22,880 bases of DNA, from the NCBI GenBank assembly GCA_043812975.1, contig JBDRLP010000013.1, positions 1 through 22,880 on the forward strand. Reading direction: 5' to 3'. The stretch comes from Candidatus Iainarchaeum sp. (GTDB lineage: Archaea; Iainarchaeota; Iainarchaeia; Iainarchaeales; Iainarchaeaceae). Below are positions 1 through 3,000 of this stretch, piece after piece; positions within the stretch are counted from its first letter, which is position 1, and each line of letters starts with the position of its first letter. A program made the position numbers.

Positions 1-3000
1 TTTTTCCCTTTCAACCAAACCAACTTCTTCCAAAGCCTGAACATGCTTCAAAGCCACTGGATTAGAAATATTCAATTCCTTTGCCAATGCAGCAATATGG
101 GTCTCCTTGTGCATGAGAATCTGCACAATATTGCGCCTGTTCTGGTTTCCTAATACTTGAAAAATATCCATACAACTCTTATGTTACTTAAGAATTTAAT
201 ATTATCCTTCAGGGTAATAATCATTATCTTTTTTTGAAACTATTTAAAAGGTTCCTAAGATATTTCAATTTACTAACAAAAACTGAGGTGGTTCAATGAA
301 AAAATATTTGCTAGTAATAAGTTTGTTATTATTTGCAGGAATTGCTCTTGCTGACCAGATAACAGTAAAATACAATTTTCCTCTTGATAAGGGAATAACT
401 GATGTTTCAGAAATAATAGAAATAAATGATGAAAATGCATTCACTGCATTTATAGAAGTTGCAAATAGCAATAACCTTGTCCTTGATCTAGATTACTACG
501 ATTTTGATGGGGACAGCATTCCAGAATCAGCGTTCATAAATGGGATTAGCGGAGTTAATACTTCTGATGATTTCTCAAGTTATTGGCAGTTCTCAATAAA
601 CAACAGTTCCTCTTTTACAGGAATAAGCGATTACTTCCCAAGTGGAGGAGATGTAATAAGCCTTGATTACTTGGATGATAAAACCGAAGACGCTCTTGAA
701 TGGCTTGTTGACAACCAGGAAGAAAACGGAAGGTTTGGTTCAAACTTATTCCAAAGCGGTTTTGGTTTAATGGCCTTAAGTCTTGCAAACCAAAATAGTG
801 TTGCTGTCGAATCTCAAGTGTACACAAATGGAATAAGTTACACTACTGGTGAACAGGAAAATGATGCTGGTTTTGGAGACGAATTATACACTGCGGTTTC
901 GATAATGGCTTTGCTTTCAAATGGAGAAAGTTTAACTGATTTTGATGTTGATGGCAAAACCGCAATTGAGTTTCTATTAGAAAACCAGAACAATGATGGT
1001 GGTTTTGAAAGCGGAACTAGCGAAAGTGATGTTGATACAACTTCATGGTCAATAATTGCTTTAGCACAGGCTGGAGAAGAATTTCCTGAAAATAATGGAA
1101 ATACTCCTGAGGATTATTTAATTTCTGTACAATTGGAAGATGGTGCCTGGGGTTATAATGCAGAATCAACAGGAAGTGTTGATTATACAAGTGAAGCATT
1201 GATTGCTTTAGCTACGGCTGGTTCAGAAGATGCAGCGGTTCAAGATGGTCTCGATTGGTTGTCAGATAAGCAGGATGAAGAAGGCTGTTTTGCTGATGGA
1301 TTCAGAACAGCTTTAGGAAGCATTGCTTTCAGAATGAATAGTGAAACAGAAAAAGCAAACTCAGCACTTGACTGCTTGAATACAATGCAGAATGGTGATG
1401 GAAGCTTTGGAAGAACCTCAAATAAATCAAATGCAATTGATACAGGATTAGCAATAATTGCATTAAGTGAGGAAACATTCCCTTTGACAACAACTTCTCC
1501 AACAGGTTCTGAGGAAGGAATTCTTGGTTTGAATTCAATAATAAAATTCATTGTGGAAATAGAGAATTTAGGAAATGTTACTGCTGAAAACGTAGAAATT
1601 TCTTTAGAAGGAATTCCAAGCGATTGGATTCTTGATCAGAGTAATCTAAGCTTTGATGAAATTCTCGCTGGAGATTCAATTGTAGCAGAAATCTTTGTGA
1701 AATTAGAGAATACAGGTTCGTTTGATGTACAGGCAATTGTAAGTACGGATACATCAACAGCATCAGCAAACTCGAACTTTGTTGATCTTGCAATAGAAGA
1801 AGCATTGCTTGGAATAAACCTGAGTTTTGAAGAGTGATATTATGGAAAAAAAATATGTAGCAATAGGGGTAGTAATAGCACTGGCTTTTGTAGTTTTGTT
1901 TCAGGGGGAACTAACAGGTTTGTTCTTCTTGAACAATTCTCAAGCAAATGATGAATTTCTTTTGGATAGTTCTGCTGATGCTGAAGAACAAATAATTACT
2001 TCTTCCAATACAGTTTCAACAAAACTTTCTTTTGAGATTGTTGAACCTGCAAAATTAAAAGTTGAACTTGTTGAAGGAAAATTATTTCCTTGTCCCAATT
2101 ATTCTGATTTAATTTTTGAAGTTGAAAATATAAGTTCAGGAGTCGCTGAGCGGTTTAATGTAAATTACCCTTCTGATCTTATTGTTGAAAACTGCATAAA
2201 CTGCTCGTTAAAGAAAATTGTTTCTGGAGCAAAGGAAACTGTAAAAATTAGGGCATGCAGGGCTGTTTCTGATGAACTCCATGTTGAGTTTTCCTCGGTA
2301 AATGCGGATACTTTACTTGTTCAACTAGATTAATTTTTTCATCCCCTTGGGGAAAACCTATTTATTACAGAAAGCTGTTTTTAATGTATGCAAATAACTG
2401 AAATCGCAAGAGAAAAAGCAATTGAAGTACTGAAAATCTGTTCAACCAAAAATGGCTTGTATGGTTCAGGCGGAAAGAATGGTTATACTTCTGTTTGGGC
2501 AAGGGATTCAATGATTTCTCTTATTGGTGCAACTTCCAATACAAAGGAATTCCAAAAGGTTTTCAAGGCAAGCATTGAAACTTTAGCAAAGTATCAGAGT
2601 GAAAAAGGCCAGATTCCTAATGATGTTGATGTTTTTGAAAAAAGAAAATTAGTAACTTTTGCGACAATAGATTCAAGTCTTTGGTTTGTTCTTGGAAACG
2701 CGATGTACAAAAAAAAGTTCGGGACTTCTCTCTGGAATAAGTACAGGAAAAATATTGAAAGAGCAATGCTTTGGGTTGAATATCAGGATGCTGGTGAAGA
2801 TTTAATGCCTGAACAACAGCCAACAAGCGATTGGCAGGATTGTTTTCCGCACAAGTATGGTCATACAATAAACACACAAGCAATGTACTATAGTGCATTG
2901 AAAGCAATAGGGAATAAAAAAATCTTCAAAGCTTTCAAGAAACAGGTTGACAAGTATTTGTGGGACGACAAGTTAGGTTATTTCATGCCCTGGCATTGGA

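Follow-up and report, generated by a model that had tools for sequence, protein, structure and literature searches.

The window analyzed here (the whole 22,880-nt stretch, numbered from the start of its contig) opens with a truncated regulator gene on the − strand and, divergent from it, an ORF at 296..1837 on the + strand. The ORF has an ATG start and encodes a secreted protein of 513 aa (the target), which contains, from the N to the C terminus, a DUF4430/SLBB β-domain, an α/α toroid, and an immunoglobulin (Ig)-like domain. The N-terminal sequence, MKKYLLVISLLLFAGIALA/DQ, was read by eye as a putative Sec-type leader (signal peptide at residues 1–19; 296..352, + strand), and the positive-hydrophobic-ALA pattern is kept across the alignment of the target family. 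An AlphaFold2 model built on 29 sequences (mean pLDDT 88.1, pTM 0.72) is β-rich at residues 20–126, contains helical repeats at 129–390, and forms a β-sandwich at 407–501. This is essentially the three-domain fold given in the genome-wide survey's note, obtained here from a separate alignment, and the ORF and leader given in that note were recovered as well. Searches identified 45 homologous proteins at E ≤ 0.001. As the note had counted, 37 of these (query included) form a group, found here at E ≤ 2e-67 with 38–100% identity; PF14478 is present in nearly all, and two, P0025 and P0026, carry PF01122.

The β-domain (353..673, + strand; residues 20–126) was assigned as a transcobalamin-like SLBB domain by Pfam, by its AlphaFold2 fold, and by profile matches in the PDB. 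Pfam places DUF4430 (PF14478) at residues 70–125 (E 4.1e-8; 34 bits against a cut-off of 23.8), and the family is matched in 29/29 members of the target family. The predicted domain has strands at residues 20–27, 37–43, 63–68, 78–84, 96–101, and 120–126 and a helix at 48–58. When the PDB was searched with a profile of this N-terminal domain, the top four matches were intrinsic factor (two chains; E 3e-3), TCN1 (E 0.057), and TCN2 (E 0.25), and the rest was noise at E ≥ 1; the full-length profile matched residues 333–391 of intrinsic factor at E 1.4e-5. The target and the B12 carriers have the motif I..IngI...YWqf....G[IV].dY.P in common. Judged from these sequence matches, the β-domain is homologous to the β-domains of the animal B12 carriers intrinsic factor, haptocorrin, and transcobalamin. 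Portions of the literature on the carriers describe the isolated transcobalamin β-domain as binding cobalamin and cobinamide on its own (PMC5599065) and the β-domain as binding first, with the α-domain closing over afterwards (PMC11107200).

The toroid (680..1465, + strand; residues 129–390) is single, as established by Pfam, the family alignment, and AlphaFold2, and is modeled as an (α/α)6 barrel, the predicted fold thus being that of the carrier α-domain. It contains Q..DGGF repeats, an invariant SDVDTTSW segment (D245, D247, T248), and two invariant cysteines (C331 and C360). Pfam assigns Prenyltrans to residues 124–332 (E 4.8e-10) and SQHop_cyclase_C to residues 218–341 (E 1e-10); PF13243 and PF00432 score 41.6 and 39.8 bits, each over its cut-off, and TED_complement is matched weakly. 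Structural alignment with VIA-align gave Z 26 to squalene-hopene cyclase and drimenyl-diphosphate synthase. The α-domain of intrinsic factor gave Z 21.2 for 2pmv_B (rmsd 3.0, 237 of 267 residues aligned) and Z 20.8 for 3kq4_A, values of ~21 that do not distinguish it from other six-hairpin toroids (Z 21–23); six-hairpin hydrolases score Z 22–23. Intrinsic factor ranked 37 and 48 in VIA-align, and the Foldseek best 50, which comprise terpene cyclases, prenyltransferase β subunits, and thioester domains, contain no B12 carrier, in agreement with the note's own caution that the fold search does not single out these proteins. Among PDB sequences, the full-length profile matched class II terpene cyclases at E 7e-17 and did not match the carrier α-domain. 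Class II terpene cyclases are therefore closer to the toroid than the carrier α-domains are. PF01122 (Cobalamin_bind) is not matched by the target at E ≤ 1; 15/29 relatives match it at that threshold. Two of them, P0025 (29.5 bits) and P0026 (25.2 bits), are the only ones to exceed the cut-off of 25, and their matches span just 52–81 residues. The domain order of the target (β, toroid, Ig) is the reverse of the α-before-β order in PF01122 carriers. The description of this protein as built from the two modules of the eukaryotic carriers thus holds for the sequence-related β-module and is not supported for the toroid, given Z 26 to cyclases against 21 and no PF01122 match.

D245-V-D247-T248 aligns with the DVDD of the cyclase 7xq4. 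Two of the three DxDD aspartates are invariant in the target family, including one aligned with the catalytic D303 of drimenyl synthase, and the last aspartate is replaced in 29/29 sequences, leaving none with the catalytic DxDD. A Bacillus DUF4430+toroid protein, P0039, has the DPDTT form of the motif, which therefore travels with DUF4430. Thioester (TED) domains of α-2-macroglobulin and complement are characterized by a CxEQ motif. This motif is absent from the target, whose only two toroid cysteines lie in EGCFADG (C331) and LDCLNT (C360).

The Ig-like β-sandwich (1514..1798, + strand; residues 407–501) is of the NPCBM_assoc/CARDB/DUF11 type, with Pfam matching NPCBM_assoc in 25/29 members, DUF11 in 24/29, and CARDB in 18/29. 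A conserved C-terminal strand comes after it and is modeled with low confidence (pLDDT <50 at residues 505–513). The frame of the next gene (1827..2333, + strand; 168 aa) overlaps the target stop codon, a layout suggesting co-transcription. Its product, referred to here as the TM-Ig partner, has an N-terminal membrane helix, an acidic linker, and a β-domain of ~100 aa with four cysteines that are invariant in the family alignment (C89, C123, C126, and C144); no Pfam family matches it. The gene lies directly 3′ of the target in 13/13 related loci that reach past the target, and its product may anchor the target at the surface. Also 3′ of the target are glycoside hydrolase, glycosyltransferase, deacetylase, and kinase genes. 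These are common only to L003, the locus of the closest relative, where the target is 79% identical, so the neighborhood was rejected as a functional signal and the note's use of the glycan genes as a pointer to the role was set aside.

Upstream of the target, the first 57 codons of an ArsR-type winged-helix regulator occupy 1..171 on the − strand with an open 3′ end at the contig start; no other piece of the gene was found anywhere in the assembly. The fragment is 95% identical over 57 aa to a 168-aa protein of L003. Full-length orthologues (~168 aa) combine HTH_5 with a C-terminal DUF4430/SLBB domain, the arrangement of the ArsR-SLBB one-component regulators in passages of Burroughs et al. 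(2007). The window carries only the HTH part (57 aa), the DUF4430 half being missing because the contig start cuts the gene. A regulator with both parts is located upstream of the target in 15/16 related loci. Between the regulator and target genes lies an operator-like palindrome, TATTATCC-TTCA-GGGTAATA (200–219), directly followed by ATCATTATC (220–228); the whole element, 200..228, has no strand. The palindrome aligned in 7/7 intergenic regions compared, that of L009 being the most divergent, and the window holds the only exact copy of it in the 1.24-Mb genome. Allowing up to 2 mismatches yields 2 genomic sites versus 2–5 in shuffled sequences, so only position and conservation speak for the palindrome. 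A TATA-box-like sequence, TATTTAAAA (241..249, + strand), lies ~50 nt 5′ of the start codon and is a putative promoter element; its TTTAA core does not vary among the related loci compared (alignment columns T72–A76, window 243–247). Rfam at gathering thresholds gave 0 matches in the window and in the piece of contig C68 considered below, so these contain no cobalamin riboswitch, as the note had stated for the surroundings of the target.

A second DUF4430 gene, reported in the note at C68 5321–5725, is indeed present there and encodes a small predicted lipoprotein (g01419). It overlaps a membrane-protein gene by 4 nt, indicative of translational coupling, and the two proteins are fused into a single protein in P0136. 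Only a half-site of the palindrome, and not the full site, was found upstream of this pair, and a regulon shared with the target was not supported. The S-type membrane protein gene, the small DUF4430 gene, or both adjoin the target in 7/16 related loci. A profile of the membrane-protein family gave one significant match among PDB sequences, 6fnp_A (E 2.9e-4, positions 11–143). From its length (182 aa) and a sequence present in no other entry, 6fnp_A would be the S-component CbrT; entry 6FNP is the transporter ECF-CbrT, whose substrates are cobalamin and cobinamide and which hemin does not inhibit (PMC5997447). The AlphaFold2 model of the C68 membrane protein (pLDDT 94.6) aligned to 20 S-component entries at Z 8.7–14.8, a band that also includes MreD, before scores dropped to ≤5. 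Foldseek returned no match at E ≤ 0.001 for this model (its E-values were weak, at least 0.17) and did not have 6FNP among 129 candidates, so it is the sequence profile that links the protein to CbrT. The membrane gene adjoins NrdJ in 8/8 related genomes examined; for the same eight genomes the counts are 7/8 for CobA and 5/8 each for the small DUF4430 gene and thioredoxin. The note had proposed the small DUF4430 protein as a second binder. Its coupling to a CbrT-like gene that adjoins NrdJ in relatives identifies it as a genuine partner, which may itself bind the ligand. The target, the S-component pair, NrdJ, and CobA are spread over four contigs of this genome, an arrangement that counts against a role in B12 uptake.

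The genome of this archaeon (1.24 Mb, rated 94.5% complete) contains NrdJ, 5 ORFs with B12-binding domains, and a CobA homologue on C42. CobS, CbiB, BtuC/FecCD, and CbiQ were not found in it, which upholds the note's account of an organism that uses B12 and lacks the genes to make it. EcfT/CbiQ (PF02361) had no match at E ≤ 0.01 in the same genome, and the S-component would therefore have to work alone. The target family has a patchy distribution, occurring in 18/151 sampled genomes of the phylum, and whole NrdJ-bearing families in this sample are without it. The target is thus an accessory and not a general first step, so the note's proposal of a missing first step of B12 scavenging in DPANN archaea is not sustained. 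Five genomes of a family with the target but without NrdJ and CobA have 5–15 B12-binding-domain ORFs each. The membrane-protein match is missing in 4/18 target-positive genomes, and no clean correlation of the membrane protein with NrdJ emerged across families of the sample: one family has NrdJ in 17/17 genomes and the membrane protein in 0/17, and another has NrdJ in 0/13 and the membrane protein in 9/13.

Taking together the observed domain identities, gene linkages, and genome inventory, the target is probably the secreted capture component of a module that scavenges corrinoids (vitamin B12 or cobinamide) for a B12-dependent archaeon without B12 synthesis. Corrinoid capture is the best-supported reading because of the conserved gene context, not because of the fold. 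The cobalamin-capture role suggested by the note thus gains from context and from the homology of the β-domain, and draws no specific support from the toroid, which is nearer to cyclases. Concerning the ligand, its hand-over between proteins, surface anchoring, and regulation, we infer the following course of events. The DUF4430 β-grasp domain would contact the corrinoid first and the adjoining toroid would then close over it, in the order of events known from transcobalamin and with the domains in reverse order. The Ig-like domain and the TM-Ig partner (1827..2333) would keep the complex at the cell surface, and the ligand would pass to the small DUF4430 lipoprotein and the solitary CbrT-like S-component, both encoded on C68. 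Intracellular CobA would adenosylate the corrinoid, which the class II ribonucleotide reductase NrdJ would then use; B12-binding radical-SAM enzymes may also use it. The ArsR-DUF4430 protein would sense the same ligand and control the promoter via the palindrome, a mode of control that would replace a B12 riboswitch.

It is unlikely, in our assessment, that the same module serves a different soluble ligand, such as heme, some other tetrapyrrole or corrinoid precursor, or a metabolite unrelated to these. Heme uptake is claimed, in the part of the report drawn on here, for a Lactobacillus sakei ECF operon with separate β-domain-like and α-toroid-like proteins (10.1101/864751), and a passage of Burroughs et al. 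(2007; PMC1796856) points out that B12 synthesis is frequent among archaea with SLBB proteins, whose role may thus be to scavenge “a distinct metabolite”; in addition, the toroid of the target has no specific carrier signature. Against another ligand, CbrT is the only PDB sequence matched by the partner S-component, linkage to NrdJ and CobA is specific to B12, B12 synthesis genes were not found in this genome, and hemin did not compete in ECF-CbrT transport (PMC5997447). Still less probable is a surface enzyme or lectin in which the toroid binds or acts on an isoprenoid or glycan and DUF4430 is an accessory; such a protein would be a relative of class II terpene cyclases or six-hairpin glycosidases. 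The toroid's best fold and sequence matches are indeed squalene-hopene cyclase and drimenyl-diphosphate synthase (Z 26; E 7e-17), with two of three DxDD aspartates invariant, including the D303 equivalent, but the motif reads DVDT rather than DxDD and occurs with DUF4430 in the Bacillus protein P0039 too, and a single toroid is not a two-domain cyclase. The Z of 22–23 to six-hairpin hydrolases and the adjoining glycoside-hydrolase and glycosyltransferase genes would suit a glycan, but these genes are kept only at the 79%-identical L003 locus, whereas every conserved neighbor either carries DUF4430 or has a part in B12 uptake; the secretion leader also argues against this reading. A mainly structural or adhesive surface protein, for example in host-cell contact, with ligand binding secondary or lost, would fit an Ig-like domain type common in surface proteins, the membrane-anchored Ig-like partner, and the patchy distribution, but is highly improbable given the conserved DUF4430 motif common to B12 carriers and the tight linkage (15/16 loci) to a predicted ligand-sensing regulator with the same domain.

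The target is of a kind already described computationally and is not itself a new kind of protein. Passages of the computational study by Burroughs, Balaji, Iyer, and Aravind (2007; PMC1796856) describe SLBB+toroid fusions in both orders, SLBB+Ig proteins in archaea, and ArsR-SLBB sensors, and they predict B12 scavenging for organisms without synthesis; the architecture is therefore not novel. The 2007 prediction extends to B12 binding by prokaryotic transcobalamin-like proteins and to an origin of the animal carriers from them. The SLBB+toroid surface proteins described there resemble the target in their two domains, their signal peptide, and their predicted extracellular location. A toroid C-terminal to SLBB, as in the target, is described there for Bacillus, and the homologue search made here recovered a Bacillus example, P0039. 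Compared with the proteins in those passages, the target combines a single SLBB domain with a C-terminal Ig domain, lacks an LPXTG or S-layer anchor, and is accompanied by the TM-Ig partner as a separate protein; its locus has a divergent regulator with a conserved palindrome, and its system has a solitary CbrT-like S-component and no CbiO/CbiQ operon. No experiment testing whether a prokaryotic SLBB+toroid protein binds B12 turned up in a literature search.

The animal carriers transcobalamin, intrinsic factor, and haptocorrin (PF01122 + PF14478) are secreted, as is the target, which differs in its reversed domain order, extra Ig domain, and cyclase-nearer toroid; receptor-mediated uptake is not expected for it. 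In Lactobacillus delbrueckii, the S-component of ECF-CbrT is clustered with NrdJ and a corrinoid adenosyltransferase (nrdJ-cbrS-cbrT-pduO; Santos et al. 2018, PMC5997447), and the same logic is seen in the 8 related genomes, except that the adenosyltransferase is CobA-type here and PduO-type there and that EcfT/CbiQ was not found in the present genome. Lsa1839/Lsa1840 of L. sakei, according to the part of that report drawn on here, are secreted β-domain-like and toroid-like proteins beside an S-component transporter (ECF Lsa1836–1838; 10.1101/864751); in that species each domain is a protein of its own, a full ECF module is present, and the authors argue for heme, whereas the target is a single fused protein. 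The published descriptions drawn on here give the Bacteroides surface B12-binding lipoproteins BtuG, BtuH, and BtuJ an analogous role, high-affinity extracellular capture before a membrane transporter. Their folds are unrelated to that of the target, BtuG being a β-propeller and BtuH containing DUF4465. All three act at the Gram-negative outer membrane with the TonB-dependent transporter BtuB.

With genomes of ~1 Mb, DPANN-type archaea rely on other cells for their cofactors, and a literature search found no description of the route by which they acquire B12. The locus and its relatives offer a complete parts list for such a route: sensor and operator, surface trap and anchor, delivery lipoprotein, CbrT-like S-component without an ECF module, CobA, and NrdJ. 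A broader picture, which we offer tentatively and consider rather doubtful as a whole, would be a protein-only, riboswitch-free B12 economy that uses DUF4430/SLBB three times: in the intracellular ArsR sensor, in a surface-tethered, high-affinity toroid/Ig trap possibly drawing B12 straight from a host cell, and in a lipoprotein loading a solitary CbrT-type S-component without an ECF module. The toroid would then be an independent, cyclase-like recruitment, convergent with the animal α-domain and not ancestral to it. If the regulator is a ligand-responsive archaeal repressor with a defined operator, it would be a useful genetic part. A binding experiment on the target would be the first experimental check of the 2007 prediction on transcobalamin-like proteins.

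The open reading frame at window positions 296..1837 (+) is intact, begins with ATG and encodes 513 aa, with an N-terminus (MKKYLLVISLLLFAGIALA/DQ) that, by eye, resembles a Sec leader. Pfam placed DUF4430 at residues 70-125 (34 bits), Prenyltrans at 124-332 and SQHop_cyclase_C at 218-341, all above cut-off; NCBIfam returned sub-threshold matches only, of the cyclase type. The AlphaFold2 model, built from an alignment of 29 family members (A1), had a mean pLDDT of 88.1 and a pTM of 0.72 and contained a β-rich domain (residues 20-126), a helical toroid (129-390) and a β-sandwich (407-501), followed by nine final residues that are conserved yet modeled with low confidence. 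The genome-wide survey's note had described the same frame, Pfam domains and three-domain layout, and its description was borne out in every part. Among the 45 proteins that a homologue search recovered at E<=0.001, 37 (query counted) fell at E<=2e-67, with 38-100% identity and identical architecture, and the named sources were "archaeon" or "Candidatus Diapherotrites" bins. Across the 29 members of A1, Q..DGGF-type repeats, an SDVDTTSW motif and the toroid cysteines C331 and C360 are invariant; judged from the alignment, the cysteine pair fits an extracellular disulfide. The gene is real and well conserved. The best match after the family was a Bacillus protein (P0039) in which DUF4430 occurs twice, the toroid carries the motif DPDTT and the tail is of the LPXTG type. 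One orthologue, at L015:1866-3228 (G119:C91), was found in two pieces with two internal TAA stops, which could reflect either a pseudogene or faulty assembly.

The transcobalamin-like SLBB clade was defined by Burroughs, Balaji, Iyer and Aravind in 2007 (PMC1796856). That paper describes bacterial fusions of SLBB and α/α toroid domains in both orders, with the Bacillus toroid C-terminal to SLBB, as well as archaeal SLBB-Ig fusions. It also proposes that intracellular ArsR-SLBB fusions are one-component sensors and that the animal carriers were acquired from Firmicutes, and it predicts B12 scavenging in organisms with these proteins, which are usually without B12 synthesis. The architecture and the scavenging idea were already contained in that work, so the novelty is less than the survey's note claimed; the window protein is an archaeal addition to a class that had been set up by computation in 2007. 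The literature searched yielded no experimental B12-binding test of prokaryotic SLBB-toroid proteins, and the only functional study found, an L. sakei preprint (10.1101/864751), argues for heme. A ligand other than a corrinoid, such as heme, is the best placed of the alternatives, and even so unlikely. A profile restricted to the N-terminal domain (A4, 13 sequences), searched against 177,635 distinct PDB sequences, gave credible matches to carrier β-domains only, namely intrinsic factor (E 3e-3), haptocorrin (0.057) and transcobalamin (0.25), with all others at E>=1. The full-length profile matched intrinsic factor at E 1.4e-5 over the same β-domain region. By these profile matches, the homology of the β-module with the B12 carriers is real.

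The note had gone further and seen in the protein both modules of the eukaryotic carriers; the profile matches support a shared β-module, and the toroid proved nearer to terpene cyclases. The full-length profile matched the toroid to drimenyl-diphosphate synthase (7e-17) and squalene-hopene cyclase (3e-12), and no carrier α-domain appeared among its PDB sequence matches. In structure comparison, the toroid aligned with the same two enzymes over ~255 residues (Z 26, rmsd 2.7-2.8) and with the intrinsic factor α-domain over 237 of 267 residues at Z 21.2, a score in the band of geranylgeranyltransferase β subunits and six-hairpin hydrolases. PF01122 had no match in the window protein at E<=1; it was detected at that threshold in 15 of 29 relatives, two of them above cut-off, over a short stretch only. 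The toroid is of a fold class common with the carrier α-domain, yet nearer to the terpene cyclases. A cyclase- or glycan-related role, to which this proximity would lend itself, is nevertheless improbable: the cyclase DxDD position reads DVDT in 29/29 family sequences, and the glycoside hydrolase and glycosyltransferase neighbors that had concerned the survey's author are common to only one related locus, L003. The CxEQ thioester motif is absent from the sequence.

The surroundings of the gene were compared in 16 related loci (L003-L018) by clustering and tblastn; L019, an unrelated actinomycete toroid, was excluded. In 15 of the 16 (not L004), a divergent gene directly upstream encodes a regulator of ~170 aa with an ArsR helix-turn-helix and a C-terminal DUF4430 domain. 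Its first 57 residues are encoded at window 1..171 (-), where the gene is truncated by the contig start; this fragment and the L003 protein share 95% identity, and the remainder of the gene is absent from the assembly. Between regulator and target, the palindrome TATTAyCC-N4-GGrTAATA, followed by ATTATC and a TATA-like TTTAA, is kept in 7/7 loci compared. An exact copy of the palindrome is present at a single place in this genome, window 200-219; because sites at 2 mismatches are no more numerous there than expected by chance, its support is limited to position and conservation. Directly downstream, at window 1827..2333 (+), a gene overlapping the target stop codon encodes a protein of ~165 aa (the TM-Ig partner) in which a single membrane helix at the N-terminus is followed by an acidic linker and a β-domain with four invariant cysteines. 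It matched no Pfam family and is present in each of the 13 loci whose sequence continues past the target. Such a membrane-bound, Ig-like pairing might also suit a mainly structural or adhesive protein, which we regard as the most remote of the alternatives. Seven of the 16 loci (L010, L012, L013, L014, L015, L016 and L017) also carry, alongside the target, a multi-pass membrane protein (~177 aa) and/or a small DUF4430 protein; the latter is visible in L014 only as a fragment at the contig start, and the membrane homologue downstream in L015 is more distant. This conserved neighborhood is the main reason why the B12 role predicted in the note is better supported than its author knew. The L010 and L014 records are labeled as bacterial bins (Falkowbacteria, Chloroflexi), yet the archaeal-type cluster is complete in both, at 39-40% identity, and the operator-like site is there as well; these contigs are probably mis-binned. 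Further along the window, a sugar-metabolism cluster (2388-9223), conserved only with the 79%-identical L003 locus, encodes a hydrolase resembling GDE_C/GH100, a GT4 glycosyltransferase, a PIG-L deacetylase, a PfkB kinase to which a glucosamine-6-phosphate isomerase-like domain is fused, and a GT4 protein of 723 aa whose C-terminal region is six-hairpin-like. No other frame in the window comes near the length of the single one at 10550-17707 (+), which encodes 2385 aa.

In the window's own genome, the membrane protein orthologue (L001:830-1357, on contig C68) overlaps the small DUF4430 gene (L001:1354-1758), which is the survey's g01419 and encodes a lipoprotein-like product with an FSGC motif. 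An MFS transporter gene (L001:2-751) lies directly upstream of the pair. Pfam found no match in this membrane protein, and some relatives belong to DUF6580 or ECF S-component families. A profile of the family (A2, 48 sequences) gave one significant PDB match, 6fnp_A (E 2.9e-4, 133 positions), from the ECF-CbrT complex of L. delbrueckii (PMC5997447). We take this chain to be the S-component CbrT because its 182-aa sequence is present in no other PDB entry. Both cobalamin and cobinamide are taken up through CbrT, with no competition by hemin (PMC5997447). The AlphaFold2 model (pLDDT 94.6, pTM 0.87) matched ECF S-components at Z 8.7-14.8, after which scores fell to 5 or below; the Foldseek E-values are weak by themselves, and a language-model atlas agreed in placing the protein with S-component-like clusters. 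One homologue (P0136, 307 aa) unites in a single polypeptide an S-component-like membrane protein, a further membrane helix, a GGCS that resembles a lipobox, and DUF4430.

When 151 sampled genomes of the phylum were searched for the B12-dependent ribonucleotide reductase NrdJ and for the membrane protein, the coordinates of the two coincided in eight. The clusters there draw on five gene types: the membrane gene, adjoining NrdJ in 8/8 regions; the CobA/BtuR adenosyltransferase in seven (Pfam 175-183 bits in the three copies scanned); and the small DUF4430 gene and thioredoxin in five each. In L022, the one region without CobA, the contig ends inside NrdJ. The arrangement of NrdJ, membrane gene and CobA repeats the logic of the L. 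delbrueckii nrdJ-cbrS-cbrT-pduO cluster, which is what led to CbrT. Beside the membrane gene, L024 carries (5757-7259, -) a 501-aa fusion of MtrA-like (corrinoid-protein family), thymidylate synthase and pterin-binding domains; the same position holds a Pfam-confirmed serine hydroxymethyltransferase in L026 and, in L025 and L027, 435- and 415-aa frames with N-termini resembling it. With NrdJ and thioredoxin, these genes look like a deoxynucleotide and dTMP supply island. The NrdJ frames (G000:C25:53906-58447 in the window's genome, and those of related genomes) span ~1100 to 1900 aa with model matches in separated blocks, a pattern that suggests one or more inteins.

In the window's genome these genes are scattered, with NrdJ (above cut-off) on C25, CobA on C42 and the membrane/DUF4430 pair on C68. 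That genome, rated 94.5% complete, has five B12-binding-domain frames and no match for CobS, CbiB, FecCD/BtuC or CbiQ. The cell therefore uses B12, shows none of the tested synthesis and remodeling genes and has neither of the two standard importers, in agreement with the B12 need without synthesis that the note had proposed. No riboswitch of any family scored in the window or the C68 piece.

Among the 151 genomes, the target family occurs in 18 (9 of the 55 high-quality ones), the membrane protein in 53 (~45 strongly scoring) and NrdJ in 77; the 18 target-positive genomes include 14 with the membrane protein and seven with NrdJ. Target and membrane genes share a contig, within ~1.5 kb, in seven genomes, mostly those of the fetched related loci. 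By family, the features are not cleanly correlated: one family has NrdJ in 17/17 genomes and the membrane protein in 0/17, and a second has the membrane protein in 9/13, the target in 7/13 and NrdJ in 0/13. Five genomes of the second family encode 5-15 B12-binding-domain frames each and no CobA; they still appear to use B12, through enzymes of the methylcobalamin radical-SAM kind. Given the 18 target genomes against 53 with the membrane protein and the uneven family distribution, the target is an accessory of a more widespread uptake pair, rather than the general first step of B12 scavenging that had been envisaged.

Corrinoid capture is, on balance, the probable role of the target. In the carriers, binding of the corrinoid by the β-domain precedes closure of the helical domain over it (PMC11107200, PMC5599065). 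The identities of the domains, the gene linkages and the gene content of the genome are established by the analysis; for ligand, hand-over, anchoring and regulation, we infer a scheme by analogy in which the DUF4430 domain would capture the corrinoid and the toroid would cap it, perhaps via the acidic SDVDTT loop, invariant in the family, at the mouth of the barrel. The complex would be kept at the cell surface by the Ig domain and its TM-Ig partner, the small DUF4430 lipoprotein and the CbrT-like S-component would receive the ligand, and the ArsR-DUF4430 protein would repress the divergent promoters under plentiful B12. The value of the finding lies in this assembled module, which is directly testable.
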